Assembly: GCA_018060845.1 (NCBI GenBank)
Contig: JAGOVG010000004.1
Coordinates: 12,118-76,117, forward strand
Reading direction: 5' to 3'
DNA length: 64,000 nucleotides
Origin: Candidatus Woesebacteria bacterium
GTDB lineage: Bacteria > Patescibacteriota > Microgenomatia > UBA1400 > UBA12108
The notes beneath the pieces were generated by a model. It was not told where the DNA came from and did no database searches. It saw only the letters and a list, made by a program, of their open reading frames with translations. How positions within the stretch are numbered: position 1 is the stretch's first letter; each line of letters begins with the position of its first letter. This document shows, piece by piece, positions 3,253-63,520 of this stretch. The translations under genes and the position numbers were made by a program.

Positions 3253-6006
3253 GTGTCCGACGATAAGCTACTCAAACCACTAGATCTATCCGACGAGACT
3301 ACCGAGTCTTCGTCAGAACTAAGTGATTCTGCGCCGAGCTCTGACGCACCAGAATCAGCAGTCGTCATGCCAACTGGCACCAACATGACTGTCAATCACA
3401 ATCAGGTCTGGGAGATCGAGAACACTCAGTTTGGCCGGATTGCTAAAGTCCCAATCGTTGAAGAGATGAAAAAGAGTTATCTCGATTACGCTATGAGCGT
3501 TATCGTCTCTCGTGCGCTACCTGACGTACGTGATGGCCTAAAACCGGTCCATCGCCGTATCCTCTATGGCATGAAGGAGCTCTCGCTCCTCCCACCAGCC
3601 AAATACAAAAAATGTGCTCGTATCGTCGGTGAAGTCCTAGGTAAATATCACCCTCATGGCGATACAGCCGTCTACGACGCACTCGCTCGTTTGGCTCAAG
3701 ACTTCTCTATGCGCTACATGCTAGTCGATGGCCAGGGTAACTTTGGTAGTGTCGATGGTGACTCACCAGCCGCCATGCGTTATACCGAAGCTAGACTTGC
3801 CAAAATAACTGGCGAGATCCTCTTTGACCTCGATCGCGACACAGTCGATTGGGTCGACAACTTTGATGGCACTTTCCAGGAGCCGACAGTCATGCCAGCC
3901 CGCCTCCCCAACCTCCTCCTCATGGGTAGCGATGGTATTGCGGTCGGTATGGCTACCAAGATCCCGACTCACAACCTAAGCGAAGTTGTAGCCGCAATTA
4001 ATACATTAATCAAAAAAGGCGACGTCAAAACCGCCGACAACTCTCATCTCAACGATGATACTATCTCAACCGCACCATACCAGAGCCTGATTGGCGACTT
4101 TAGTTCCGAAGCTAATATTGATGATTTGATGGAGAGCGTCCAGGGTCCCGATTTCCCAACTGGTGGTGTCATCTATGATGCCGAGGCCATCCGCGAAGTC
4201 TACGCAACCGGTAAGGGTCGGGTAGTAACCCGCGCCGTTGCTGAGATCGAAGAGACCAAGAGTGGCCGTTTCCAGATCATAGTTACCGAGATCCCATACC
4301 AGGTCAACAAATCCAAACTAATCCAAAAAATAGCTGATCTCGTAAGAGACAAAAAGATTGAGGGGATTAGTGACCTCCGTGACGAATCAGATCGCGAGGG
4401 TATGCGTATAGTGATCGAGCTCAAAAAAGCCAGTAAGCCTAAGAGCGTCTTAAACAATCTCTACAAACACACCGAACTCCAAAACAGCTTCCCCGCCAAT
4501 ATGGTGGCGCTCGACGAGACCGGTACTCCCCACCTCATGAACCTCAAAACCATCCTCACTCACTATGTTAAGCATCGCCAGGGCGTGATAGTTCGTCGTT
4601 CCCAGTTTGAACTCAAAGAGAGTCGGGCACGCATCCACATCTTAGAGGGATACCTCAAAGCCCTAGATCATCTAGACGAAGTCATCAAAACTATTAGATC
4701 AAGTAAAGACACTGATGAAGCCAAAAAGAACCTGATCGAGAAGTTTGGCTTTAGCGAAATCCAAGCCGTTGCTATCCTCGATATGCAGTTGCGTAAGCTG
4801 AGCGCACTCGAGCGTCAAAAGATCCAGGATGAATACGACGAGCTAATGAAGAGGATCACGTTCCTCCTCGAACTACTGCGTAACCCACAGGCAGTCCTCA
4901 AAACAATTCTAGCCGAACTCAAAGAACTCGAGAGTATCTACGGCGATCCACGTAAAACCAAGGTCATCAAAGGCAAGCTAGGCGAATTTAGCGAAGAAGA
5001 TCTAGTCGCCAAAGAAGACAATCTGATCGCCATAACTCGTGACGGCTACGTCAAGCGTATGCCACTCTCGACCTATCGCACCCAGAGGCGCGGCGGCAAA
5101 GGCGTTGTCGGCATGACTACCAAAGAAGAGGATGAGATCCTACACATGAGTGTGGGTAACACTCACGATGTCGTCATGTTCTTTACAGATCTAGGCAAAG
5201 TCTACGCCAGTCGCGTATTCGAACTACCAGAGGGTAGTCGAACCGCCAAAGGTCAAGCTATTATCAACTTAATTAGCATTACTTCAGACGAAAAAGTCCT
5301 GGCGCTCTTAACAGTTCCCAAAGAAGTGCTAGAGAGTGATAAGAACTTTATTTTCTGTGCGACCAAAAATGGGCTAGTTAAAAAGACTCCGATTGTCGAA
5401 TATAGCAATATCAGAAACTCCGGCAAGATCGGGATCGTCCTCAAAGACAACGACAGTCTCATCAAAGCCCAGGTCACAGACGGTAGTAATTACATCCTCT
5501 TGGTCACCCACCAGGGCAAATCAATCAAATTTAAAGAAGCCGATGTCAACCCAACCGGTCGTGCCAGTCAGGGTGTCAAAGGGATCTCACTCAAAAAAGA
5601 TGATGCCGTGATCGCCGCCTCAACATTTGAGATAAATCCTGTGAGGCCTGATGACAAGAGGAAGAAGTTCTTCCGCGAGATCTTGGTTGTCACCGAACAC
5701 GGGTTAGGCAAAAGGACCGACGTCGAGGAATATCCAGAGCAGGGTAGGGGAGGCCAAGGGGTCAAGGTAGCTGAGCTATCAGACAAAACCGGCAACCTTG
5801 CAGCAGCCAGATTGATCACCGAAGCCGATGAGCAAGCAGTGATCACCACCAAAGCCGCCCAGGTCATCAAGCTACCAATCAAGAACATCAAAGTACTTGG
5901 TCGCTCAACTCAGGGTGTCATCCTCATGCGACCCGCCAAAGGCGATGTTGTAACCTCCGTCACCACACTGCAAGAGTCCGAAGACGAAGAAGACTCGTTA
6001 GCCTGA
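3253..6006 (+). CDS. gyrA: DNA gyrase subunit A
   Basis: GTG start abutting the ppa stop. Conserved [23 protein letters not shown], active-site region and C-terminal beta-pinwheel repeats; 917 aa. Confidence 0.95.
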
Positions 6007-16290: not shown

Positions 16291-16328
16291 CTCCCCTGCC
16301 CTCTGCACATCAAGTTACGCAGTAACAT

Positions 16329-16364
16329 GAGAAATGCCTCCAGATACGTAGTAATCTGGGAGAC
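16329..16364. repeat. hairpin repeat GAGAAATGCCTCCAGA-N10-TCTGGGAGAC, copy 1
   Basis: Near-identical to 27462..27497. The stem arms are conserved and the 10-nt loop differs. Confidence 0.6.
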
Positions 16365-16416
16365 GGCACATCAATCCCGCCTTGGCGGGAATGAGAAATA
16401 CATCAAGTTCCGATTT

Positions 16417-19372: not shown

Positions 19373-20452
19373 CCTTTTATGCTACCATATAGAGCTATGC
19401 AACTTAGTGATTTTTACTACGATCTACCAAACGAGTTAATAGCGCAGGAACCTGCTCATCCTCGCGACCATAGCCGCCTAATGTTAATTAATCGAACGAC
19501 TGGCAAGATCTCGCACCACCACTTCTATGATTTGCCCCAGCTACTGCCATCTAACTATCATCTGGTCGCCAATAACACCAAGGTCTTCCCCGCGCGGTTA
19601 ATTGGCAATAAAATCACTGGTGGGCATGTCGAAGTACTCTTACTCAAAAAACTCCCAAACTCGCAGTTTGAGGCGATTGTCTCACCCGGCCTCAAGGTTG
19701 ATCAGACAGTCATATTTACTGATCAGCTAAGTGCGACGGTCGTCAGTGTCGAAGATCGAATCAGGCTGCTCCAGTTCTCTATTCCTGACCCGGTGCTAAC
19801 TGAGCAGATCAGTCACATCGGCTCCATGCCTACCCCACCATATATCAAAAAAATGCTAGAGAACAACGAAGACTACCAGACAGTCTATGCCAAGTATGGC
19901 CCGCCTGCCGGCGAGGCAGGCTTTTCTGCAGCCGCCCCCACTGCCGGGTTACACTTTACCCCCGAGCTATTAGAGATCGTCAAAGAAAAATACGGCTGGA
20001 GTGAGCTAACACTCGATGTCGGGCTCGGCACTTTCCTGCCAGTCAAAGTAGATGATGTAAAAACCCACCACATGCACCGGGAGGCCTACCGACTCGATGC
20101 AGCTACTGCCAATGAGCTGCAACAGCTAGACCATGTCTCTCACAAGTTATGCGTCGTCGGAACCACTACCCTCCGAGCACTAGAGAGTAATCCCACCCTA
20201 ACCCCAGGTGAGTCAGAAACAGAAATCTTCATCTACCCCCCCTACCAGTTCTGTCATGCTGATGCACTCATTACCAACTTTCACTTGCCTGGGAGCACCC
20301 TACTTATGTTAGTCTCTGCATTCTGTAGCTCACCTCAGACTAGTACTCCTTTTACCACATTCAATGACTCCCTCCTCGGCCGTGCCTACACCGAGGCTGT
20401 TGCCAAAAAATATCGGTTCTTTAGTTTTGGTGATGCAATGCTAATTATCTAA
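19367..20452 (+). CDS. queA: S-adenosylmethionine:tRNA ribosyltransferase-isomerase
   Basis: MQLSDFYYDLPNELIAQEP… is a QueA N-terminus. The real start is probably at the MQLSDF methionine, about 19397. Confidence 0.85.
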   Translation: MHPFMLPYRAMQLSDFYYDLPNELIAQEPAHPRDHSRLMLINRTTGKISHHHFYDLPQLLPSNYHLVANNTKVFPARLIGNKITGGHVEVLLLKKLPNSQFEAIVSPGLKVDQTVIFTDQLSATVVSVEDRIRLLQFSIPDPVLTEQISHIGSMPTPPYIKKMLENNEDYQTVYAKYGPPAGEAGFSAAAPTAGLHFTPELLEIVKEKYGWSELTLDVGLGTFLPVKVDDVKTHHMHREAYRLDAATANELQQLDHVSHKLCVVGTTTLRALESNPTLTPGESETEIFIYPPYQFCHADALITNFHLPGSTLLMLVSAFCSSPQTSTPFTTFNDSLLGRAYTEAVAKKYRFFSFGDAMLII

Positions 20453-23071: not shown

Positions 23072-23081
23072 TCGACTTTAA

Positions 23082-23108
23082 ACTTTATACTTTATACTTT
23101 ATACTTTT
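23082..23108. repeat. heptanucleotide tandem repeat (ACTTTAT)x~4 in a divergent promoter region
   Basis: aACTTTATACTTTATACTTTATACTTTt lies between the lgt start (23071) and the 23112 ORF start. Confidence 0.8.
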
Positions 23109-23911: not shown

Positions 23912-23971
23912 CCGTGTCCCTCCGAAGCTGACTGCGAAGGAGGAGAATGGTATAGCTACCTGAGTATATAA

Positions 23972-25655: not shown

Positions 25656-25693
25656 GAAATAATTTTACCTCTTTAACAAAACAATAAAACTAG

Positions 25694-25721
25694 GTACTAA
25701 GTACTAAGTACTAGGTACTAG
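25694..25721. repeat. heptanucleotide tandem repeat (GTACTAA/GTACTAG)x4
   Basis: GTACTAAGTACTAAGTACTAGGTACTAG lies between the dnaB start and the stop of the upstream gene. Confidence 0.8.
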
Positions 25722-27456: not shown

Positions 27457-27461
27457 CTCCT

Positions 27462-27497
27462 GAGAAATGCCTCCAGACGCGCAGCAGTCTGGGAGAC
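27462..27497. repeat. hairpin repeat GAGAAATGCCTCCAGA-N10-TCTGGGAGAC, copy 2
   Basis: Six nt downstream of the preceding stop. Arms identical to copy 1 (16329..16364), loop diverged. Confidence 0.6.
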
Positions 27498-27579
27498 CCC
27501 AGATGCCATTGCGTCTCCTTTAGCTTCTCCTAAAGAATAATTACTCCCATACAAGATTTTTGCTAAGAAGACAGTTATA

Positions 27580-28827: not shown

Positions 28828-28861
28828 ATTTGAGAATTTGAGAATTTATGATTTGAGAATT
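28828..28861. repeat. solo copy of the dispersed repeat ATTTGAGAATTTGAGAATTTATGATTTGAGAATT
   Basis: Three TTTGAGAATT units directly after the hisS stop. The same family flanks the four-helix-bundle gene at 56466..56840. Confidence 0.7.
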
Positions 28862-30581: not shown

Positions 30582-30632
30582 ATATCCTACCCCACACTAG
30601 GTTCTTTATACTCGGTACTTTATACTAAATTC

Positions 30633-32843: not shown

Positions 32844-34037
32844 TTTCTCCGTCTTTTCATCCCTCCAGACCTCTACCTCCACTTTATCTCCTATTTTCTT
32901 TTTCCCCAGTAGCTCAGCTAACCCGGTACGTCCTGAGCTTGCCGAAGGATCTATTTCACTTAACTTCTTGCCATCAAAACTCACAATAATGTCTCCTTTT
33001 TTAATCCCAGCTGAGTCGGCGCTCGAGTCTTTGACTACCTCGACCACATATCCCCCAGCCGGTACCCCGTTTAGTATCCCCTGCTCTTTCGTAATCGTCT
33101 GGTAGCGTACGCCAAAGAATGGTCTATCAAATGCCCCAGTCTCGTTAAAATTCTTCATAGATTCTTTGACCAGGTTGATCGGCAGTGCAAAACCAATATT
33201 GTTAGCTCCCTGCGAAACCGCCACATTCACCCCAATCACTTGTCCGAGCGAGTTAAGTAGTGGCCCACCAGAATTACCTGGATTAATTGCAGCATCTGTC
33301 TGGATTACATTATCTAGCTTCTCAGCAAAAGAGTACCCATCACCTGCAGTGATCCCTCGACCGAGTCCTGATATAACTCCAGTCGTCACGGTATGGCGAA
33401 ACTCCCCGAGCGCCGTCCCGATCGCAATTACAAAGTTTCCTACCTTTAGCCTGTCCGAGTCACCCATCTCGATCGCTCTATACACCTCTTGCCCTTCCGA
33501 AGCCGTAGGCGAAGGAGGGTCTATTTTTAATATTGCCAAATCATTAGCTGGATCTCGCCAGATCTTCTCGACCTGGTGCTCACTCTCATCCTTTAGCACC
33601 ACTTTGTAGTCACTAGGCGACCCTGATGAGACTACATGCTTGTTGGTAACTACCAGCCCTGCCTCATCTATGACAAATCCGCTCCCGATATCTACCTGCT
33701 CAGACTCTACCTCTCCCGATGGGCGCGACCCGCGGAACATCCCAAATGGGTCGAGGAAATATTGCTCGAGTATCGGTGTCTCTCGCTTAAAAGTGACTGT
33801 GACTACTCCAGCCGATACCTTTTCGGCAACCTCTGTTACCACATTCTCTTCGTTAACAACCCGCTGGTTAATTACCTCGGATGCACCACTTCCACTCCCC
33901 AGATTTAGATTCCTCAAAAATGGCAGCCCCCAGATCTGCTCAGATACTGCCCCGCCAATAAATACGGAAACCAAAAATATCCCCGACATAAGTCCTATGA
34001 CAAAAGTTGACAAGCTCTTACTTTTCATAACAATCAA
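32817..34037 (-). CDS. htrA: HtrA/DegP-family serine protease with PDZ domain
   Basis: N-terminal TM anchor. Trypsin-like catalytic motifs (…VVTNKHVV…, GNSGGPL) and a C-terminal PDZ domain. Confidence 0.85.
   Translation of the reverse strand: MIVMKSKSLSTFVIGLMSGIFLVSVFIGGAVSEQIWGLPFLRNLNLGSGSGASEVINQRVVNEENVVTEVAEKVSAGVVTVTFKRETPILEQYFLDPFGMFRGSRPSGEVESEQVDIGSGFVIDEAGLVVTNKHVVSSGSPSDYKVVLKDESEHQVEKIWRDPANDLAILKIDPPSPTASEGQEVYRAIEMGDSDRLKVGNFVIAIGTALGEFRHTVTTGVISGLGRGITAGDGYSFAEKLDNVIQTDAAINPGNSGGPLLNSLGQVIGVNVAVSQGANNIGFALPINLVKESMKNFNETGAFDRPFFGVRYQTITKEQGILNGVPAGGYVVEVVKDSSADSAGIKKGDIIVSFDGKKLSEIDPSASSGRTGLAELLGKKKIGDKVEVEVWRDEKTEKLSVELRGE
32853..32871. repeat. direct repeat TCTTTTCATCCCTCCAGAC (right copy, inside the htrA 3' coding end)
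   Basis: See 31708..31726. Confidence 0.75.
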
Positions 34038-36351: not shown

Positions 36352-36393
36352 TTTATGTCCTTACTTTAGACTTTATAAACTTTTAACTTTAAA

Positions 36394-36954
36394 CTAAAAA
36401 GGAATATCCTCAACATTCACCTCATCAGAGAGTGATGTCTCGACTTTTTCCTCTTCTTTAACTGCTTTTTTGGTAGTTTTTTTGGCTGGGGCATCAGCAG
36501 GAGCCGCGACAGCTGGAGCTTGGGCCATATCACCACCATTTGATGAGCCTTGATCTTCGCCTGCACCGACAAAATCGTCTTCACTGTAGTTACCGCCTCC
36601 GTTACCATCGCGGTTGCGGGTGTCGAGAATCATCATATTTTCGGCGACTATCTCGGTTACCTCGCGCTGCTGTCCATCTTGGCCAGTGAATTTGCGAGTC
36701 TGGAGACGCCCCTCTATATAGATGCGGCGACCCTTAAACAGTAGCTGTCCGCAGATCTCTGCTAGCTTACTCCAGGCGACAATACGGTGGAACTGAGTTT
36801 CTTCTTGGCGTTCTCCTCCGTCACCTGCACTCCAACTACGGTTAGTAGCGAGACCAAAGGTGGCAACAGCTGTACCACTAGGGGTATAGCGCACGTCCAC
36901 GTCGCGGGTTAAGTTACCGATTATCATTACTTTGTTAAGTGATCTTGATGACAT
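36394..36954 (-). CDS. ssb: single-stranded DNA-binding protein
   Basis: OB-fold SSB core (…NKVMIIGNLTRD…) and the acidic C-terminal DIPF tail. The ORF track extends the start to 36987. Confidence 0.9.
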   Translation of the reverse strand: MSSRSLNKVMIIGNLTRDVDVRYTPSGTAVATFGLATNRSWSAGDGGERQEETQFHRIVAWSKLAEICGQLLFKGRRIYIEGRLQTRKFTGQDGQQREVTEIVAENMMILDTRNRDGNGGGNYSEDDFVGAGEDQGSSNGGDMAQAPAVAAPADAPAKKTTKKAVKEEEKVETSLSDEVNVEDIPF

Positions 36955-50620: not shown

Positions 50621-50675
50621 CCAGAAAACTCCGAAAACTCTGATTATCCAGAATTTCGGAAAACCTGATAATATC
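50621..50675. repeat. upstream flank of four-helix-bundle cassette 1: (GAAAACTC)x2-CTGATTATCCAG…
   Basis: Inverted relative to 51053..51081. Homologous to the 63460..63520 flank of copy 3. Confidence 0.65.
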
Positions 50676-50680
50676 AAACT

Positions 50681-51046
50681 ATGATTAGAGATGTCACAAA
50701 TTTAGACGTCTACCAACTCTCATTTGAAGCGCTAGAAATTTTATATAAACTTGTGATCAAAATCCCGCATTCCGAGAGAGATACCATAGATCAATTGAAA
50801 CGTGCAAGCGAATCTGTGCCCGCAAATATTGCCGAAGGCTTTGCCAAAAGATCATCAGAAAAAGAATTTAAACGTTTTCTTAAAATAGCAATCGGATCTA
50901 GTGATGAGGTAGTGACTCACCTTAGAATGGTCTGCATTACAGTCCCAAATTTACAACCACAAGCAATACAAGTTGCAGACACTTTCACAGTCCTATCCAA
51001 AAGATTAAACAAATTGCATTCAGTCTGGCGAACAGGTAATTTCTAA
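50681..51046 (+). CDS. four-helix-bundle protein, 23S rRNA intervening-sequence protein family (PF05635/TIGR02436-like)
   Basis: …SVPANIAEGFAKRSSEKEFKRFLKIAIGSSDEVVTHLRM… is the family signature. One of three paralogs in the window. Confidence 0.75.
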   Translation: MIRDVTNLDVYQLSFEALEILYKLVIKIPHSERDTIDQLKRASESVPANIAEGFAKRSSEKEFKRFLKIAIGSSDEVVTHLRMVCITVPNLQPQAIQVADTFTVLSKRLNKLHSVWRTGNF

Positions 51047-51052
51047 GTCATT

Positions 51053-51081
51053 AGAGTTTTCCGAGTATTCCGAGTCTTCCG
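51053..51081. repeat. downstream flank of cassette 1: GAGTTTTCCGAGTATTCCGAGTCTTCCGA
   Basis: Reverse complement of the upstream GAAAACTC tandem units. Confidence 0.65.
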
Positions 51082-51084
51082 ACC

Positions 51085-54080: not shown

Positions 54081-54110
54081 TCGCAAGGCGGGTAGCCTGA
54101 GATCGAGGTC
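54081..54110. repeat. 30-nt conserved intergenic motif TCGCAAGGCGGGTAGCCTGAGATCGAGGTC (copy A)
   Basis: About 22/30 identical to 55969..55998. Both lie in intergenic regions of the dnaX-ybaB-recR operon. Confidence 0.5.
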
Positions 54111-54176
54111 GCTGCGACACCTGTCGCAGACAGACCGCTTTTTTACACAAAGTACTCCGAACCCGTAAAGCGAGTA

Positions 54177-55909: not shown

Positions 55910-55968
55910 GTAACTACTTTATCACGACCGAGCGTAGTGTACAGTCGTATCTCACAACAAAAAAATAT

Positions 55969-55998
55969 TCGCAGAGCGGGTAGCTCGAGACATAGATC
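55969..55998. repeat. 30-nt conserved intergenic motif TCGCAGAGCGGGTAGCTCGAGACATAGATC (copy B)
   Basis: See 54081..54110. Followed at 56009..56031 by AAATTTATGAT, which is shared with the TTTGAGAATT repeat family. Confidence 0.5.
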
Positions 55999-56067
55999 AA
56001 AATTTCAGCAGAAATTTATGATCGGTTTTTTGTGTGATGGTACAACGAAACACTAAAAGCGAGCGCT

Positions 56068-56460
56068 CTATTCGTGATGAAAACCTAACAAATGCATCAG
56101 CCCATGCTCTGCCAAAAACTGGATCTGGTCATCTAGCTTGATCTGCTTCTCTAGTGCCTCCTCTACCGCCACCGGATAACACACCACTATATCGCCGAGT
56201 CGAAGCATCCCATCTGGTGATGCCACAAAAGGCCTATCATCGGTCTGATCGTTTAAAGGAAAAGAGAGGACGTCCGTAGGACCTGGCAGCTGCATATAAT
56301 CCATGTGCAACTGGGTCATCTTGCGTGCGCCGACCACCTGCACCTCAACCACCACATTATCCGTTAGTCTATGTCGGGCGAGTACTTTGGTTAAATGTGC
56401 GCGTAATGCGGCTCGGTCAAACGGAAATTTAGCATCAGCGATGATATCAATATTAATCAT
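56068..56460 (-). CDS. ybeY: endoribonuclease YbeY
   Basis: Metal-binding HGLMHLLGFHHE motif. The ORF-track TTG start at 56469 is probably an over-extension; ATG at 56460. Confidence 0.8.
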   Translation of the reverse strand: MINIDIIADAKFPFDRAALRAHLTKVLARHRLTDNVVVEVQVVGARKMTQLHMDYMQLPGPTDVLSFPLNDQTDDRPFVASPDGMLRLGDIVVCYPVAVEEALEKQIKLDDQIQFLAEHGLMHLLGFHHE

Positions 56461-56489
56461 AAATCTCAAATTCTCAAATTCTCAAATTT
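56461..56489. repeat. AAATCTCAAATTCTCAAATTCTCAAATTT: inverted copy of the TTTGAGAATT repeat, downstream flank of cassette 2
   Basis: Three tandem AAATTCTCA units. The last 8 codons and stop of the four-helix-bundle gene are encoded by this repeat. Confidence 0.7.
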
Positions 56490-56840
56490 AGAAGATCCAA
56501 ATTTAATTTTCTTAATAATGGCACTAAGTATTAATGTTATTTCTCTGACTTCCTTTCTCAGGTCTGAATTATCTATACCTAAGACCTCCTCAGATATTCT
56601 CAGCCAATAACTAGTTTCTTTAGCTTCCTTTTTTGCTATAGAAAATCTATGGATAAATTCAGCTTTAGATTCAGACCCGTCTGCTTCTTGAGCATTAGCG
56701 CCTATAGATGTAGCAGATCTAATTAGTTGTTTAGCAATAACACTAGCCTCGAGAGTTTTAGGAAATTTTCGAATATATAGTATTGTGTTTACTGCAAATT
56801 TATAGATTCTCTCGTATATATCACGCTTGCTCTGATCCAT
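56466..56840 (-). CDS. four-helix-bundle protein, 23S rRNA IVS protein family (divergent paralog)
   Basis: …QLIRSATSIGANAQEADGSESKAEFIHRFSIAKKEAKETSYWLRI… matches the TIGR02436-type signature. Confidence 0.75.
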   Translation of the reverse strand: MDQSKRDIYERIYKFAVNTILYIRKFPKTLEASVIAKQLIRSATSIGANAQEADGSESKAEFIHRFSIAKKEAKETSYWLRISEEVLGIDNSDLRKEVREITLILSAIIKKIKFGSSKFENLRI

Positions 56841-56850
56841 AATTTGTGAA

Positions 56851-56886
56851 GATTTGAGAATTTATGATTTAAGATTGAAGAATTTC
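56851..56886. repeat. GATTTGAGAATTTATGATTTAAGATTGAAGAATTTC: upstream flank of cassette 2
   Basis: Inverted with respect to 56461..56489. Near-identical to the solo copy at 28828..28861. Confidence 0.7.
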
Positions 56887-57306
56887 TTTTACTATCTTCG
56901 AGATCACTCCCCCATCCGCCTTACCTTGCATTAGTGGCAGCGCGATCTTCATGGCTGCACCAATATTACCGGCAGTTACTAGCTGGTCTTTTATCTTCGA
57001 TAGCTCTTCACGGACCTGATCTTCGGTAAGCATGGTTGGTAGATACTTGGCAATTAGCTCGAGCTCAAATTCTTCACCCTTTGCTAGCTCTTCTCTCCCA
57101 CCACTTCTGTATGCGAGCGCTGACTCTCGCCTCTTCTTGGCCTCTTTGGACAATATGGCTACAACCCCTACCTCATCGAGGTCTGGGTTGTCTACCATTG
57201 CGTACTTGATTGCAGAGATAAGCATACGGATAGCCGACAGTCGCACCGAATCCTGGGCTTTCATGCTAGCCTTCATGTCTTCGGTTAACTGCGACAGTAT
57301 CGTCAT
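56869..57306 (-). CDS. GatB/YqeY-domain protein
   Basis: 145 aa. The …RLSAIRMLISAIKYAMV… family pattern. Downstream of rpsU as commonly seen. Confidence 0.8.
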   Translation of the reverse strand: MTILSQLTEDMKASMKAQDSVRLSAIRMLISAIKYAMVDNPDLDEVGVVAILSKEAKKRRESALAYRSGGREELAKGEEFELELIAKYLPTMLTEDQVREELSKIKDQLVTAGNIGAAMKIALPLMQGKADGGVISKIVKEILQS

Positions 57307-57526: not shown

Positions 57527-58372
57527 TTAAAACACCTCCTTAACGAGACTCACCACCTCTTGTAAAGCGAGGTTGGTAGGGTCTTTAGGACTCGATTTGT
57601 CTGACCCATTGAGTAGCATCTGTTTAGACGGATGCAAAAACCATTGGTCAGGTCGATCGTGCTCTAGTATTTTATCATAAAGTACCGTTAGATCGATGTT
57701 TTTCTCTGGTACTGCTTTAATTCGCATATGCCCGTAGTCTGGGTGTTTGAGGATGACCAAGGTAAAACCCTGTTTTTGGGCGATCTTTATCACTTCGCTA
57801 TTGGCAGATAGGATTGCAATTCCCTTCCCCACTGCCCAGCTAAATTCTTCGCCTGTTTTAATCTCCTCTTCCGCTTTAACTACCTGTTTAAGTCGCTGGT
57901 ACACCCCATCTAGATATAAGAAAACGTATCTTGCCACTGCCTCGTTATCGATGACGCCCAGTGAATGTAGAGGTGGGATAACCTCGTGTAAGGTGTAGGC
58001 GTAGCGGACCGCCAGTGGCTCATCCCAGCCTGAGTCTTCAAACCGGTCTATCGAGAGCGCAAATTCAGTCATTTGTCTCAGTGCGGTATCGCTAGGTGGT
58101 ACTAGTCCCTGCGCTACCAAATGTTCATACACTAGCTTTGAACCGCAGGTTGTATATCCACCTGGCATATGATGATCAAAGCGGCCAAAGCCAACGTCAA
58201 CATGCACCACATCAGGATCAGAGTCGACTGGGAGGTTTTTGTAGGTCGTACTCGCCGGGATAAACTCTAAGTGCGCATCACCATAATGGGACTGATCAAA
58301 ACGAATAAATAGCCACAGCGACGTAATCGCATCAAGATCTGGGTTTTTGTGGGTAACGAGAGTCTTTGTCAT
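57527..58372 (-). CDS. DHH-family phosphoesterase (NrnA-like)
   Basis: …HKNPDLDAITS… and …VDVGFGRFDHH… DHH motifs. Probable start at the MTKTLVTH Met (58372); the track extends it to 58453. Confidence 0.5.
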   Translation of the reverse strand: MTKTLVTHKNPDLDAITSLWLFIRFDQSHYGDAHLEFIPASTTYKNLPVDSDPDVVHVDVGFGRFDHHMPGGYTTCGSKLVYEHLVAQGLVPPSDTALRQMTEFALSIDRFEDSGWDEPLAVRYAYTLHEVIPPLHSLGVIDNEAVARYVFLYLDGVYQRLKQVVKAEEEIKTGEEFSWAVGKGIAILSANSEVIKIAQKQGFTLVILKHPDYGHMRIKAVPEKNIDLTVLYDKILEHDRPDQWFLHPSKQMLLNGSDKSSPKDPTNLALQEVVSLVKEVF

Positions 58373-58391
58373 AATAATATTGTAGCATTGA

Positions 58392-59480
58392 CTAGTAGAG
58401 ATACTCTTCAACTTCCCAATCAAATCTCCCAATCCCAAGCATTTTAGCCACATTACCTAATGCACTCATAGACATGTCATATTTATCCCCCATAGTTGAA
58501 TGGATCAACACATTTAACTCACTAATGTCTAGAGGGGAATCCAAGTTTTCAAATACTTTATATTTAGCAACTATTTCATTAAAGAAAGGAAAAACAGCAT
58601 GCATATCAAAAGCAATAACTAAGTTTGTAAACAATTTTGGGTTGATTAAAAAGCTCGCCATCATTCTCTGTCTGAACTCTCTAATGTCTTGTTCATCTAC
58701 TACTACTCGCTTTATATAATCTGGAATGCATTGAGCTAATGATAGAAATTGATGCATTTCAGCAACTCCCACATCAGGCATCCAGTCACCTGCCGGGTGG
58801 ATATTCACAAAATGTATGCCTCTTACCAAGTTCAAAATGTATCTACTCATATAAACCATCAACTCGCCTGGTTCATCCCCTACTAGGTCATAATTTGGCA
58901 TTTCCTCTCTAAGTAAGTGTTTATTGGTAACCAACAGTCCCGAAGTAGTATCAACATGCTTATCATCAGGGGTTAGTGCTATTTGCTGGAGTCTGTTTGT
59001 CCTGCCAGGTTCAGTAGTATATCTGCGATCTTTTGCCAGTTCAGGACTAATATGTATTTTGGTAGCGATGTCCGCTCCATTTCGAGCTGTAATTGTTATC
59101 ACTTTACTGAGTCTCTCATCTTCCGGACGAGACGGGCAACCTTGGACGACCTCTAGATCGAGATCGTCTAGATCCAAATCTCTCAAAAAATGTTCAACCT
59201 CATCTTTAGTTGGAGGCTTGCAGTGAATAGATTTCAGATCACTATTTAATGCCTCATGCCTAGTAAAGTCGACAAAACTGGCAGCTACTCTTTCCCATCG
59301 ATTATCTGATGATTCTAAGATACGAGGGTCATCACCCAGCTGCAAGATCATAGTCTTTGTGTTCGTTAGTTCCTCGACTCTTTTTGAGTCGACCAGTCCT
59401 CTTATTGACTCGCCACCCACACTGATCAGTCCCCAGTGTTGACGAACTATTGCTGGTAATTGCTCTACTGAGACTGCCAT
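58392..59480 (-). CDS. hypothetical protein, co-transcribed with the upstream wHTH protein
   Basis: 362-aa ORF, AT-rich. Its start overlaps the upstream gene's stop by 16 nt. Confidence 0.45.
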   Translation of the reverse strand: MAVSVEQLPAIVRQHWGLISVGGESIRGLVDSKRVEELTNTKTMILQLGDDPRILESSDNRWERVAASFVDFTRHEALNSDLKSIHCKPPTKDEVEHFLRDLDLDDLDLEVVQGCPSRPEDERLSKVITITARNGADIATKIHISPELAKDRRYTTEPGRTNRLQQIALTPDDKHVDTTSGLLVTNKHLLREEMPNYDLVGDEPGELMVYMSRYILNLVRGIHFVNIHPAGDWMPDVGVAEMHQFLSLAQCIPDYIKRVVVDEQDIREFRQRMMASFLINPKLFTNLVIAFDMHAVFPFFNEIVAKYKVFENLDSPLDISELNVLIHSTMGDKYDMSMSALGNVAKMLGIGRFDWEVEEYLY

Positions 59481-60598
59481 ATCAATCCTTGTCCTCGCTT
59501 TGTTATGAGGTGCTTACTACTAATACCTAGATCAGTTAGACGCTGTCTAAGTCTATTTACCTGACTATCTAGCGCCCAGTCGCTCCCTAACGTACTATCA
59601 CCCCAAAGAGCATCGATTAAGTCTTCTCTTTTTACAAATGTTCCTGGCGATGCAAGGACTAGTTTTAGTATTTGTTTTTGCTTGCCCGTAAACTTGTCAG
59701 AATAATTTGCTCCTCCTATCAATATCATCTCTTCGCTAGCCTTCACTTCTAGCGGGTTCCCAACATACTTTTTTATGTATTCGGCTAGTAATGGGACTTT
59801 TGTGTATCCCATATCGTTAATATATTTATCGACCATCACGCTCTCTTCCCCGATTCGTGTACCATAAATACGATCAGTCATAATTTTTCGTTCATTGATG
59901 TTGAGTTTGTGCCAGATAGCTCTTAATTGCCAGATCACTTCGTGAGATTCCAAAACAACTTTGTAATCGGGATCTTTCTGGTCTCTCAACTTCCACATCA
60001 CTGATTTGATCAGTCTCAACGATGGTCCGACCGCATGCACAATTTCTGCTATCAACTCTGGCTTAAGATTCATTTTCCACTTTATAGATAGGTATATCGC
60101 AAACTCAACTGCTAATTTTTCATCATAAAATCCATGTATAACTACACTTGGTTCAAAACTAGGAATACTCAACAAAAAATTCTCAAACTGAGGATCATAG
60201 TAATTAGCCTCGCAAACCAATAATAATTTAGTTCTCTGGTTTCTATAAATATCTTGTAACGCAATAATTAAATCTGACCTTCGATCAGCAAGTATACTCT
60301 CAAACCCTAAGAGGCAAATCAAATTGTCATCTGTCTTAGTGTCTAAAATACTACGAATCATCTCTCCAGCCGTACTCCATCGCTCAATACGATAGTCAAC
60401 GATTCTTAATGATAGTTTGGTTGATCCAACTGCTTTTTGTATGAACCTGATATTCTCTAATAGCTGTTCAAACCTACGAATAATATCGCTACTAGGGTAA
60501 GTTACTATCATGCATGGCTCGCCATACCTGAGGGGAGCAAGCCAATAACTCCACATTTCTTCAATGTTTGATGGTTTCCAGTATGAACTAGTTTTCAT
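59465..60598 (-). CDS. atypical OmpR/PhoB-type winged-helix DNA-binding protein (C-terminal wHTH, no receiver domain)
   Basis: C-terminal …REDLIDALWGDSTLGSDWALDSQVNRLRQRLTDLGISSKHLITKRGQGLIW matches the trans_reg_C wHTH. The 280-aa N-terminal region has no REC or Walker motifs. Confidence 0.55.
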   Translation of the reverse strand: MKTSSYWKPSNIEEMWSYWLAPLRYGEPCMIVTYPSSDIIRRFEQLLENIRFIQKAVGSTKLSLRIVDYRIERWSTAGEMIRSILDTKTDDNLICLLGFESILADRRSDLIIALQDIYRNQRTKLLLVCEANYYDPQFENFLLSIPSFEPSVVIHGFYDEKLAVEFAIYLSIKWKMNLKPELIAEIVHAVGPSLRLIKSVMWKLRDQKDPDYKVVLESHEVIWQLRAIWHKLNINERKIMTDRIYGTRIGEESVMVDKYINDMGYTKVPLLAEYIKKYVGNPLEVKASEEMILIGGANYSDKFTGKQKQILKLVLASPGTFVKREDLIDALWGDSTLGSDWALDSQVNRLRQRLTDLGISSKHLITKRGQGLIWQSQ

Positions 60599-60616
60599 CC
60601 TATAATTATACTCCGC

Positions 60617-60642
60617 CTGTCAATCTTTCAATAGATTAACAG
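60617..60642. promoter_or_regulatory. imperfect palindrome CTGTCAATCT-TTCAAT-AGATTAACAG in a divergent promoter region
   Basis: 10-bp arms (9/10 complementary) separated by 6 bp. Lies between the divergent 59465..60598 and 60711..61427 genes. Confidence 0.5.
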
Positions 60643-60710
60643 GTAACGTGACAAGCTAAAAAGAGATTTGCACTATAAGATACACCAAAATATTAGATAG
60701 GAGCCCATTT

Positions 60711-61427
60711 ATGAGTAAATACGAATACCTTGATGCCTTATCAAACACCATCACGGATCCAGAAAAACTTAGACTGTTGCTTGATATTCCAGAGAGTGTC
60801 TTAGCTATAGCCGCTAGTAAGTTCCATATCAGCGAAGAGGAAGGAATAAAGCTAGATCGCTACCCACTCGCACGCATTGTGAGAGTGATCAACTATAATC
60901 ATTTAGTAGATTATGCTTCCAAGGAGCATAAAATATGGCAAAGAACAGAAGAGAAGTTTTGTAGTAACCCTAACTTTATCCCATTTTCTAAGTTATCTGA
61001 CAGTGATAGGGTGCTAAGAATGGTCAAAACTGAAGTACCATCAGGTCAGATGAATCCTATTTACGACTCTCTAAGTATTGAGGGTATCGGAGTTATTCCA
61101 AGAAGCAAAAATAGAGTCGAGCTTTTAGCTAGACATCATCAATACGGAGAGTATCCTCACCCCGGCTTCAGTCATCGTACAAGCATAGATCCATTCGATA
61201 GTAAAAAATATAAAATACCTAGTGCTGTAACAGTGGGAGAGTTAAAAAAATATGACACCAGTCATTCTATACTACGTTCTCTTGCTCATGATTTAGAAGT
61301 AATGAGAGGTGGTAAACAAGAGAATATAGAAAAAGATATCGATCTCTCAAATTATGAATTTTACTTCGCTATGCCTTTGTTCAATATAGCTATCGATTAC
61401 TGTGAAGTAGCGCTCACAATTAAATAA
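60711..61427 (+). CDS. hypothetical protein
   Basis: 238-aa ORF, AT-rich, with no motif recognised. Confidence 0.4.
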   Translation: MSKYEYLDALSNTITDPEKLRLLLDIPESVLAIAASKFHISEEEGIKLDRYPLARIVRVINYNHLVDYASKEHKIWQRTEEKFCSNPNFIPFSKLSDSDRVLRMVKTEVPSGQMNPIYDSLSIEGIGVIPRSKNRVELLARHHQYGEYPHPGFSHRTSIDPFDSKKYKIPSAVTVGELKKYDTSHSILRSLAHDLEVMRGGKQENIEKDIDLSNYEFYFAMPLFNIAIDYCEVALTIK

Positions 61428-61443
61428 TTAGGTAGAACTTATA

Positions 61444-61995
61444 ATGAATAAAACAGAAATTGTTTTTCAATCACAAGCCGAGTTAATAAATTTCGTCGGA
61501 GGAGAGAACCTTCTAATTTCAAGAATGCTATCAGATCATCCAGCTATATCGAGCGAACCAAGAATATCATTAACCAGCACCTTAGTTACTCTGTTAAGCG
61601 AAGACTTGATCAGAGCTGACGAGCAATGTGCACTAGAACTATCGATTCAAAAATTCCGTGAGCTATCTTTAGTCAATATCCCATCTAGAGCAGAAGACAT
61701 TCACCAATATTTATATCCAGATAGTGAGACATCATTACAAGACACTAAAACTTTAATAGAATTATTATCAAAAGCAGCATTAATCACATATAAGGATAAG
61801 GGATATCATCTTGATACAGGTATTAGACGTCTAGCGCTAGTTGAGTATGAGTTAACCCAACCAGAACAATATGCTCATAGTCACATAAGCCTACTAATCA
61901 CAGCAATAGATTTACAAACTAGATATCCGGAAGCCAGTAGTTGGTATGATAATATGCTACCCGATATTGAGATTAAACAATTTACTAATAGGTAA
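61444..61995 (+). CDS. hypothetical protein
   Basis: 183-aa ORF, 16 nt after the previous stop (operon). Confidence 0.4.
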   Translation: MNKTEIVFQSQAELINFVGGENLLISRMLSDHPAISSEPRISLTSTLVTLLSEDLIRADEQCALELSIQKFRELSLVNIPSRAEDIHQYLYPDSETSLQDTKTLIELLSKAALITYKDKGYHLDTGIRRLALVEYELTQPEQYAHSHISLLITAIDLQTRYPEASSWYDNMLPDIEIKQFTNR

Positions 61996-63025
61996 CAATA
62001 TCCACTAATACCTTCGCTAGTTTATCCGAATCATGCCTCACCATACTCCTAACTAGGTTGTCCCCTTTCTCTTTCCTTACCTTCCCCTTTGCCAACAACT
62101 TCTCTCTTATCACTTCAAAATTTATTTGAGAATTTGACCTGCCTGCGCAGGCAGGGAATTTATGTTTTGTGATTTCCGACGACACTAAGTCGTCGGTGAC
62201 CCACTCCGATCCCTCTTTCTGGTATGCCTTGGCTACTTTGGGGTCTATCGTCCTATCTGTGTTCACAATTACATGGGTCAGTCTTGTTAGAGGTAAATAT
62301 TTACCTAGGTCATTTAGGTAGTCAGAGGCCTTATATCCATAGCTCTCACCACTCTTCGTCATTACATTCATCACAAATGCCAGCTTGGCGTAGCTCTTAT
62401 TAATCGCCTCGACTACTCCCGAGATCACCAAGTTGGCAACAGTGTTGGTATACAGGTCACCTGGCCCGAGTACTATCAGATCAGCTTCCTGTATGGCTTT
62501 TTTTGCCTCAGGATCTACCTCTACTTGTGGTATGGTCCTAAAGCTAGTTATCCGCTCTCTGCCACTAGTCCCCTTACCCACATCTATCCCATGCTCTCCT
62601 AGCACTTCTGTGCCATCTGCATAGGTTGCCAAGAGTGACACAGTCTCATACGACACAGGCAGGATCTTGCCTCTCACGTCAAGTAGCTCGGCAGTTTGCT
62701 TAATCGCATCGCGCTGGCTACCTGTAATATCCGAAACAGCTGCCATAAAAAGGTTGCCAAAAGTCATTCCCGAGATCCCAACTCCCTGATAGTATCTATA
62801 CGAAAATAATTTACGTAGCAGTCCTTCGTTCTCCGATAGTGCCACCATACACTGCCTAACACCTGATGTTGGTAACAGTCCAAACTCATCCCTGAGCACC
62901 TTATTGCTGCCTCCATCATCCGCCATGGTAACAACCGCCGAGATATCTATGTCTGGATACTTCTTTAGTCCACGTAAAACTGTATATGTCCCAGTCCCAC
63001 CACCGATAACCACAATCTTTTTCAT
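61985..63025 (-). CDS. yvcK: gluconeogenesis factor YvcK (UPF0052 / CofD-like)
   Basis: MKKIVVIGGGTG…VVTMADDGGS…LPTSGVRQCMVAL is diagnostic. The C-terminal about 25 aa are encoded partly by a repeat/palindrome. Confidence 0.75.
   Translation of the reverse strand: MKKIVVIGGGTGTYTVLRGLKKYPDIDISAVVTMADDGGSNKVLRDEFGLLPTSGVRQCMVALSENEGLLRKLFSYRYYQGVGISGMTFGNLFMAAVSDITGSQRDAIKQTAELLDVRGKILPVSYETVSLLATYADGTEVLGEHGIDVGKGTSGRERITSFRTIPQVEVDPEAKKAIQEADLIVLGPGDLYTNTVANLVISGVVEAINKSYAKLAFVMNVMTKSGESYGYKASDYLNDLGKYLPLTRLTHVIVNTDRTIDPKVAKAYQKEGSEWVTDDLVSSEITKHKFPACAGRSNSQINFEVIREKLLAKGKVRKEKGDNLVRSMVRHDSDKLAKVLVDIVTY
62124..62164. repeat. ATTTGAGAATTTGA + perfect 18-nt palindrome CCTGCCTGCGCAGGCAGG + GAATTTATG inside the yvcK 3' coding end
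   Basis: Member of the TTTGAGAATT repeat family. The palindrome (62138..62155) is perfectly self-complementary. Confidence 0.7.
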
Positions 63026-63029
63026 ATTT

Positions 63030-63100
63030 ATCAGACAATCAGAATACTCAGATAATCGGTTGGTCAGATAGTCAGATTATCAGAATCTATCAGATCTCCA
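63030..63100. repeat. downstream flank of cassette 3: run of seven TCAGA(N) units incl. CAGATTATCAG
   Basis: ATCAGACAATCAGAATACTCAGATAATCGG…TCAGATAGTCAGATTATCAGAATCTATCAGATC. Its reverse complement resembles the cassette 1 downstream flank with C/T changes. Confidence 0.6.
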
Positions 63101-63445
63101 TATACTATGTAATTTGTTTATCCTTTTTGACAAAAGCTTATACAGATTTGCCAATTCTACTATTTCAGACTGTAATCGTGTCACTGCATAATATACCGTT
63201 CGAAAGTGGGTTACAACTTCATCACTCGACCCAATAGCTATCTTTAAAAATCGCTTAAATTCTTTTTCCGAAGATCTTTTAGCAAACCCTTCTGCAATAT
63301 TTGCAGATACTGATTTAGCAGCGCGCCTTAGCTGACTGATCGTATCCATCTCAGATTTTGGAAATTTCCGAAGCAAAGTATATAGTTTAGCTATTAGCTT
63401 TAATGATTCGTTATATACATCCAAGTCAGTGACATCTCGTATCAT
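63080..63445 (-). CDS. four-helix-bundle protein, 23S rRNA IVS protein family (close paralog of 50681..51046)
   Basis: …SVSANIAEGFAKRSSEKEFKRFLKIAIGSSDEVVTHFRT… Nucleotide sequence is diverged from copy 1 but the protein is conserved. Confidence 0.75.
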   Translation of the reverse strand: MIRDVTDLDVYNESLKLIAKLYTLLRKFPKSEMDTISQLRRAAKSVSANIAEGFAKRSSEKEFKRFLKIAIGSSDEVVTHFRTVYYAVTRLQSEIVELANLYKLLSKRINKLHSIWRSDRF

Positions 63446-63459
63446 AAAAACATCGTACC

Positions 63460-63520
63460 ACGTCCGATATTCAGGTTGCCTGATAATCTGGTTTTCCGAG
63501 TTTTCCGGTTGTCTGATTTC
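63460..63520. repeat. upstream flank of cassette 3: CTGATAATCTG-GTTTTCCGAGTTTTCCGG-TTGTCTGATTTC
   Basis: Its reverse complement GGAAAACTCGGAAAACCAGATTATCAG matches the cassette 1 upstream flank GAAAACTCCGAAAACTCTGATTATCCAG. Confidence 0.65.

Follow-up and report, generated by a model that had tools for sequence, protein, structure and literature searches.

A four-helix-bundle gene between tandem-repeat arms: a probable intervening-sequence-like cassette outside rRNA in a Candidatus Woesebacteria bacterium

Introduction

In a 64,000-nucleotide stretch of DNA from a Candidatus Woesebacteria bacterium (contig JAGOVG010000004.1, referred to here as the window), a small gene encoding a four-helix-bundle protein lies between two inverted arrays of short AT-rich units, and similar arrays recur elsewhere in the window with no such gene beside them. 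What are the gene and its flanking arms, and how did the solo copies of the arm-like sequence come to be where they are? A sequence-only reading of the same DNA, made without database searches, proposed a small dispersed repeat family of the REP/MITE type, and suggested that solo copies could be footprints of cassette excision or insertion. The analysis described here combines profile searches, RNA folding, comparison with related genomes, and metagenome scans. Considered as a whole, the region is best explained as an intervening-sequence (IVS)-like gene cassette located outside of rRNA, an explanation that is held with moderate confidence.

Anatomy of the Cassette

The cargo of the cassette is a gene at 56466..56840 (minus strand) that encodes a protein of 124 amino acids. 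In profile searches the product scores 72.2 bits against Pfam PF05635 (cutoff 33.8; E 4.9e-20) and 87 bits against TIGR02436 (cutoff 24), and it is a clear member of this family, which carries the name "23S rRNA intervening-sequence protein". The nearest solved structure is PDB 2RLD (E 3e-15), an entry that contains five chains. Comparison of orthologues gives dN/dS values of ~0.08-0.11 for the informative pairs, indicating that the gene is under purifying selection.

The strings quoted in the sequence-only reading are present at the positions given for them, and the gene is indeed bracketed by an inverted pair (I5: 56455-56484 and 56847-56876), with arms that are 30 nt each, 83% complementary, and spaced 362 nt apart. 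Each arm is made up of 8-nt units repeated 3-4 times; read on the sense strand, A predominates in the upstream arm and T in the downstream one. The 5′ arm (56844..56877, minus strand), AATCTTAAATCATAAATTCTCAAATCTTCA, contains the stop codon of yqeY (56869-56871) and differs from the repeat-family consensus at 7 of 34 positions. The 3′ arm (56454..56489, minus strand) consists of three copies of ATTTGAGA followed by TTTATGAT. The bundle gene ends within this arm, which holds its final 7 codons and its stop codon and also supplies the start codon of ybeY (ATG at 56458-56460), consistent with both the orthologue in a close relative (L116) and the gene call in L001, a Logan contig of the same organism from an independent short-read assembly. 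The upstream neighbour, yqeY (56869..57306, minus strand; PF09424, E 2.6e-34), and the downstream neighbour, ybeY (56068..56460, minus strand; PF02130, E 3.3e-25), belong to an rpsU-yqeY-ybeY operon within the gene string rpsU-yqeY-ybeY-dnaX-ybaB-recR. As the stop codon of one neighbour and the start codon of the other have been absorbed into the arms, the operon stays intact. RNA folding of the cassette places the arms in the closing stem of both the MFE and the centroid structure (z = -2.95).

No transposase, recombinase or reverse transcriptase was found near any of the three cassettes of this family in the window, and the genes neighbouring them are housekeeping genes or lack an assigned function. 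An Rfam scan of the window returned one tRNA only, with rRNA absent and no known RNA family at any repeat copy, while PADLOC gave no credible match to a defence system. Two regulatory roles for the arms were considered and rejected. A promoter-like arrangement, TTGAGA-18-TATGAT, the -10 box of which includes the ybeY start codon, is found solely in the three-unit 3′ arm and has no counterpart in the solo consensus, which argues against promoter activity as a general function. A terminator role was set aside as well, as a GC hairpin with a T run after it is absent at repeat copies.

Two observations concern the flanking DNA. L001 stops ~50 nt beyond ybeY, in the intergenic stretch before dnaX that holds one copy of an ~80-nt repeat (described below), and breakage of the assembly by repeats may be the reason. 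On the other side, between rpsU and yvcK (57527-61995), lie five ORFs that mostly have no Pfam match, one of them containing a Trans_reg_C domain, with GC content falling to 0.36; this segment is a variable island, given that L116 has two different genes there.

Related Cassettes and Their Arms

There are three PF05635 cassettes in the window in total. The other two are of a first type that is distinct from the one at the yqeY-ybeY junction: one adjoins cysS (50622..51082, plus strand; gene 50681..51046, PF05635 E 1.4e-20) and has arrays of the CCGAAAAC/CTGATAAT type, and the other lies between rseP and yvcK (63028..63519, minus strand; gene 63080..63445, PF05635 E 2.7e-23) and has arrays of the TCAGATAA/CCGGAAAAC type. 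Both products also score above the Pfam and TIGR02436 cutoffs. The two first-type proteins are 64% identical to each other and their cassettes have arms in common, while both are 29% identical to the protein encoded at 56466..56840; this split in protein identity indicates that the arm type follows the gene subfamily. In all three cassettes, the arms pair as a closing stem around the whole ORF in the MFE or the centroid fold, with z = -1.7 for the cysS-adjoining cassette and z = -3.6 for the one between rseP and yvcK.

Comparison with relatives offers insight into the history of these cassettes. The closest relative containing the region is L116 (GCA_031972135.1), in which S21, YbeY and DnaX are 100%, 93% and 86% identical, respectively, to their counterparts in the window. 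The cysS-adjoining cassette is kept in L116 (92% amino acid identity between the two proteins), and the rseP-yvcK cassette is not at this site. At the yqeY-ybeY junction, the L116 site is empty: the two genes overlap at ATGA, with neither a cassette nor a remnant of one. The more distant L002, L066, L080 and L115 (S21 71-80%, DnaX 61%) do have a cassette at this junction, encoding a bundle protein that is 66-73% identical to that of the window. A cassette that is missing from the closest relative but present in distant ones must have been either lost very cleanly or inserted more than once at this junction. Vertical descent followed by a single clean loss is the simplest account, the alternative being repeated insertion. 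In L003, the dprA-pth junction holds a gene of the matching subfamily (63% identical) with the same arms, from which it follows that the cassette has moved as a unit. Taken together, the comparison of these genomes indicates that gene and arms travel and evolve as one unit. The bundle gene of L003 has a premature TAA (4298-4300) located ~20 codons short of the expected end, and may be decaying or contain a sequencing error.

The architecture is not confined to this lineage. A protein-based scan using one genome per species identified 46 PF05635 loci in candidate-phyla bacteria, Acidobacteria, Chloroflexi, Bacteroidota, Verrucomicrobia and others. Nearly all of the 46 loci have an A-rich tandem array of short units upstream and an inverse T-rich array downstream, with a unit sequence that is particular to each cassette and a number of units that differs from arm to arm. 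A flanking inverted-repeat score of at least 30 was obtained for 18 of 39 PF05635 genes from other genomes and for none of 102 control ORFs drawn from the PF05635 loci themselves (p = 3e-14). The flanks are also more periodic than random windows, the best lag being 7 in 18/18 strong cases. Furthermore, the similarity of the arms climbs with protein identity (Spearman 0.31, p = 5e-25), as the mean number of 9-mers shared between arms goes from 0.3 for proteins that are less than 35% identical to 30 for those that are more than 70% identical. This relationship, together with the joint movement of gene and arms to dprA-pth, bears out the earlier suggestion that the repeat is associated with the cassette. 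A search for solo copies of other arm types near other cassettes gave only 4 in 97 kb, a number too small to support a conclusion. No link between the PF05635 family and flanking tandem arrays outside of rRNA was found in the literature searched.

A Dispersed Element Related to the Arms

The copies in the window exceed what is expected for the composition of the DNA. The unit TTTGAGAATT has 8 exact matches in the window compared with 0.22 expected, a count that 0 of 100 shuffles reached, and when up to 3 mismatches are allowed a double unit matches 7 times compared with 0.13 expected. A single unit inside a gene at 60178-60187 looks like a chance match. The element itself is AT-rich and is made up of four 8-nt units with sharp ends, ATTTGAGA-ATTTGAGA-ATTTATGA-TTTGAGAATT. 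The block common to the aligned copies spans 34-36 nt, A-TTTGAGAA-TTTGAGAA-TTTATGAT-TTGrGAwT-t, and its left boundary is an A in 29/29 copies with unrelated sequence outside. The fourth unit is looser, leaving one end of the element fixed and the other ragged.

A metagenome scan with the pattern TTTGAGAATTTGAGAN{0,1}TTTATGAT returned 57 loci with 68 occurrences in at least 29 distinct, sharply bounded flanking contexts. Presence and absence differ between close relatives, and the description of a small dispersed repeat family holds. Only 3 of the 68 occurrences are linked to a cassette, all at one yqeY context, and the other 65 are solo. In syntenic DNA, the matching metagenome loci are 65-75% identical to the window. 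Orthologous copies have an identical 24-nt core between flanks that are 67-85% identical, a contrast that is partly circular as the copies were found by an exact pattern. Viral contigs were also scanned using an 18-mer; the 11 matches, none of which is near a four-helix-bundle gene, were regarded as noise, showing that the 18-mer alone is not specific. The element is described nowhere in the literature searched, and such repeats in candidate-phyla bacteria were likewise not found there.

Approximately half of the contexts are inside genes, where the element is read in frame in its A-rich orientation. The reading frame is kept in at least 14 contexts, giving the peptide KFSNHKFSNSQI (K-F-S-N-H-K-F-S-N-S-Q-I, with variants K(F/I)SNHKFSNSQ(I/M)) or NSQIINSQILK, the latter being the translation of the element's other open frame. 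The host genes are unrelated essential genes in which the peptide occupies variable linkers, and among their products are Dus, an ATP-dependent DNA ligase, MetRS, MnmA, a glycosyltransferase, a class II ribonucleotide reductase, RadA, Lgt and TruB. In the T-rich orientation, one or two copies lie within a membrane-protein ORF. A clean insertion of 12 residues was considered and rejected: alignment of TruB, RadA and Dus with solved homologues (PDB) revealed little or no length difference at the peptide. These near-equal lengths suggest that in many cases the element took the place of a comparably long linker and did not merely extend the protein by 12 residues. The remaining copies fill short gaps between co-directional genes and touch stop or start codons, as in atpD-atpC, rplU-rpmA and hisS-eamA.

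The hisS-eamA copy in the window (28828..28861, plus strand) lies between the hisS stop and the eamA start and is, as had been noted, a faithful member of the family, with 0/34 mismatches to a consensus that was derived from unrelated copies in metagenomes. The insertion that contains it is ~42 nt long, provides its own TAA stop and makes HisS about six residues shorter. In L121, L123 and L125 (HisS 93%, 93% and 88% identical, respectively), hisS and eamA overlap at TAATG with neither the element nor a bundle gene, and comparison with these relatives points to a complex insertion plus replacement.

The copy in yvcK (62124..62164, minus strand), supported by its sequence and by relatives, is real and in frame, encoding ITKHKF[PACAGR]SNSQI at amino acids 288-301. 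The sequence-only reading had called it near-identical to the others, which does not hold: it is diverged and is split by an 18-nt perfect palindrome, CCTGCCTGCGCAGGCAGG (62138-62155), that encodes PACAGR and sits exactly between AAATTC and TCAAAT. The YvcK proteins P0001 and P0002 (87-89% and 87-88% identical) read ITNHKFSNSQI and IINHKFSNSQI without PACAGR, P0009 (75-77% identical) has a decayed IINLKFSNSPI, and P0003 (87-90% identical) and P0004 are without the element. In L118 (~5540-5570), which contains the yvcK gene of P0003, another 7-mer array, GGTAAAAGGTGAAAGGTTAAAG, is found where the window has its TTTGAGAA-type copy. Based on these sequences, the yvcK site seems to exchange one array for another. 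A second GC-rich in-frame palindrome is found at 19904-19920, where it gives PPAGEAG in a QueA-like protein; the two sites (62138-62155 and 19904-19920) are the only matches to in-frame 17-18 nt palindromes of the form CCTGCC..GGCAGG, with 0.02 expected. In L015, L031 and L035, arrays are likewise broken up by comparable GC hairpins or lie beside them.

The string AAATTTATGAT at 56012..56022, upstream of dnaX, had been taken for a partial copy. It exists, but alignment A2 identifies it as one arm of a hairpin within the other, ~80-nt repeat, and it is not a member of the family. The ~80-nt repeat consists of an A6 run, one or two hairpins, GCTACCCGCC-TGCGA and a T7 run. Copies are located at 54085-54165 (ybaB-recR) and 55950-56040 (ybeY-dnaX) of the window, both on the minus strand, and at 9860-9950 of L116 (rseP-yvcK), and in one copy the inner hairpin has been swapped for a different sequence that is still self-complementary. 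It has no Rfam match; a bidirectional terminator and a small RNA are both possible identities.

Several other repeats were noted. Heptamer arrays of ACTTTAT, ACTAGGT and mixtures of the two (23075-23107, 25689-25721, 30596-30627 and 36363-36395) occupy short intergenic gaps by start codons with no four-helix-bundle genes nearby. A two-copy repeat at 16328-16371 and 27461-27504 contains a GC-rich hairpin, as does a second one at 23915-23943 and 33490-33518 (hairpins TGAGAAATGCCTCCAGA...TCTGGGAGAC and CCTCCGAAGC...GCGAAGGAGG). At ybaB-recR in L076 (1955-2045) and L077, a T-rich copy of the element directly abuts an A-rich array, giving a hairpin that contains no ORF, at a junction that holds the ~80-nt repeat instead in the window. 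L005 has a comparable ORF-less inverted pair at 2915/2961.

Proposed Mechanism and Alternatives

The explanation as an IVS-like cassette envisions the following. In the operon transcript, produced presumably by read-through into the cassette, the two arms should, according to the fold prediction, base-pair over ~27-30 bp, and the resulting stem would enclose the entire ORF. By analogy with the intervening sequences of rRNA, this stem may be a substrate of RNase III. Gene and arms would be mobile as one unit that is at times cleanly lost, and the protein may have a role in recognizing its own arms. Solo copies would be independent copies of one arm-like element rather than scars of a cassette, landing where a stop codon meets a start codon or in gene segments that encode permissive linkers, often overwriting a stretch of similar length, and afterwards either being kept uniform or decaying. 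One arm might be copied into sites of short homology such as ATGA junctions; the TTTATGAT unit is similar to the ATGA/ATGATT found at the start of ybeY. As the solo element has no hairpin partner, the stem model is silent on what the solo copies do.

A broader form of this explanation is put forward as a tentative extension that is more doubtful than probable. PF05635 genes with inverted tandem-unit arms may constitute a widespread class of mobile cassettes, of which the 23S rRNA IVS were only the first to be noticed. Each protein would recognize its own arms, and single arms would be copied into junctions and into coding sequence, where they overwrite in frame, possibly via RNA or cDNA. Such an RNA or cDNA intermediate is possible given that the copies are fixed at one end and ragged at the other.

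The mismatches within the arms bear on whether pairing itself is what is maintained. G-U pairs number 24 on the sense strand and 30 on the antisense strand, accompanied by 78 transversions, so there is no sense-strand excess, and a test of G-U versus A-C asymmetry for selection on an RNA stem detected no asymmetry. Given this result, the mismatches do not establish selection for RNA pairing, and the arms might instead act as binding-site arrays. In this alternative, which is possible but unlikely, the arrays are candidate RNA or DNA binding sites for a ring-forming four-helix-bundle protein, the two arms serve autoregulation, the solo copies are targets or decoys, and the identity of copies is kept by selection rather than reflecting recent copying. 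The apparent independence of arm mismatches from RNA pairing fits this proposal, as do the specificity of arm sequence for the protein subfamily and the tracking of protein identity by arm similarity. Furthermore, the arms of the window are nearly identical to those of L002 and L066 although synonymous sites are saturated (pS ~0.75), a comparison that is independent of the DNA-pattern search. The identical 24-nt core of orthologous copies points the same way, except that it is in part an artefact of searching with an exact pattern. The 3-5 tandem units per arm may be set beside the five chains of 2RLD, and many copies between genes lie right against stop or start codons. Binding sites are harder to reconcile with in-frame copies in the variable linkers of unrelated essential genes, with presence and absence that varies between close relatives, and with the decay of the orthologous yvcK copy.

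A classical non-autonomous transposon of the MITE or REP kind, with its transposase elsewhere in the genome and the bundle gene as a mere passenger, is improbable. Many sharp-ended copies in unrelated contexts, the insertion polymorphism at hisS-eamA, and the resemblance of a gene between two inverted copies to a composite element are all features that such a transposon could produce. The solo element, however, is a direct tandem array of 34-36 nt, and its aligned copies have no palindrome, terminal inverted repeats or inverted ends; no repeated flank indicative of a target-site duplication was found in 30 aligned copies. Several copies replace sequence instead of adding to it, no transposase lies near any cassette, and a chance passenger does not explain why differing inverted arrays flank PF05635 genes across many phyla. 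Consequently, the REP/MITE-like label originally attached to the family is not retained.

The proposal that solo copies are footprints of cassette excision or insertion is largely refuted. In its favour are the near-identity of solo copies to cassette arms and the A-rich and T-rich arrays that abut without an ORF in L076 and L077. The clean empty sites in close relatives leave the idea unsupported, however: the single documented empty cassette site (the ATGA junction of L116) bears no footprint, and hisS-eamA is empty, as a clean TAATG overlap, in three relatives. Moreover, 65 of the 68 occurrences are not beside a bundle gene, and in-frame copies in essential genes cannot be former cassette sites. 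Local replication slippage of AT-rich sequence, in the manner of a microsatellite and with likeness arising by convergence, is very unlikely; the units are short and tandem, arms vary in unit number and the window has other heptamer arrays, but sharp-ended arrays with one and the same order of four units, the odd TTTATGAT in third place among them, are found in at least 29 contexts, and the hisS copy has 0/34 mismatches to copies from genomes that are 65-75% identical in syntenic DNA.

Comparison with Known Systems

The closest described architecture to the IVS-like cassette is the 23S rRNA IVS of Coxiella burnetii, which contains an S23p ORF and a 28-bp terminal stem that is cut by RNase III (PMC4990558). 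Two or three tandem GACAGAT heptamers precede the ORF in this IVS, the number varying between strains, and ORF-bearing 23S rRNA IVS are regarded as selfish and possibly once-mobile (PMC4990558). The cassette resembles the Coxiella and Leptospira IVS in having an ORF of the PF05635 family between inverted ends built of tandem short repeats, and its 30-nt, 83% complementary arms are predicted to form a long stem that encloses the ORF. Tandem short repeats adjoin the ORF in both, as 8-nt units here and as heptamers at most of the other loci. An important distinction is location: the cassette lies at yqeY-ybeY and not in helix 25 or 45 of 23S rRNA, which is the defining position of an IVS. Additionally, purifying selection acts on the cassette ORF, in contrast to the decay of its Coxiella counterpart, and the cassette arms consist wholly of tandem units that are also numerous as solo copies.

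Other families of small repeats share single traits with the element. Rickettsia palindromic elements (RPE) are small dispersed repeats of roughly 100-150 bp that are palindromic and occur both between genes and in frame in protein-coding genes, where they add a peptide segment. Only the in-frame habit is comparable (at least 14 contexts, and the yvcK copy of the window too); the element described here is 34-36 nt long, non-palindromic, composed of four 8-nt units, and often replaces a stretch of similar length. Cyanobacterial STRR are dispersed tandem arrays of 7-nt units, and Vioque reportedly described STRR heptamers inside a structural RNA gene in 1997. The likeness is limited to the tandem-unit habit, the PF05635 flanks elsewhere being mostly heptameric; STRR belong to another lineage, while the element is constant in length and in the order of its units and has sharp ends, and the literature searched yielded no link between STRR and four-helix-bundle genes. 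Similar to REP/BIME and MITE sequences, the element is small, multi-copy, mostly located at gene ends, and variable in presence between strains. In contrast to REP/BIME, it is AT-rich rather than a GC-rich palindrome, with about half of its contexts intragenic, and in contrast to MITEs it lacks terminal inverted repeats and a target duplication, with no transposase near the cassettes.

The fold family of PF05635 also includes Avd, the accessory protein of diversity-generating retroelements, which forms pentamers, and a review of these retroelements is said to mention PF05635. The genomic context differs from that of Avd, as no reverse transcriptase, template repeat or variable repeat lies adjacent to the three window genes or in L116.

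Significance

The role of the ORFs in 23S rRNA IVS, and whether these intervening sequences were mobile in the past, have been open questions since the early 1990s (PMC4990558). The PF05635 family has now been found with repeat-built inverted ends outside of rRNA, at operon junctions where close relatives differ in whether the site is occupied. The presence of the same cassette at two loci and the conservation of arms past synonymous saturation offer a comparative system in which mobility and arm recognition can be studied. The element may also cause assembly breaks, which is of relevance to annotators. For the bacteria themselves, which have reduced genomes, one source of protein variation is a 34-36-nt element whose copies encode a 12-residue peptide within RadA, MetRS, ribonucleotide reductase and other core proteins.
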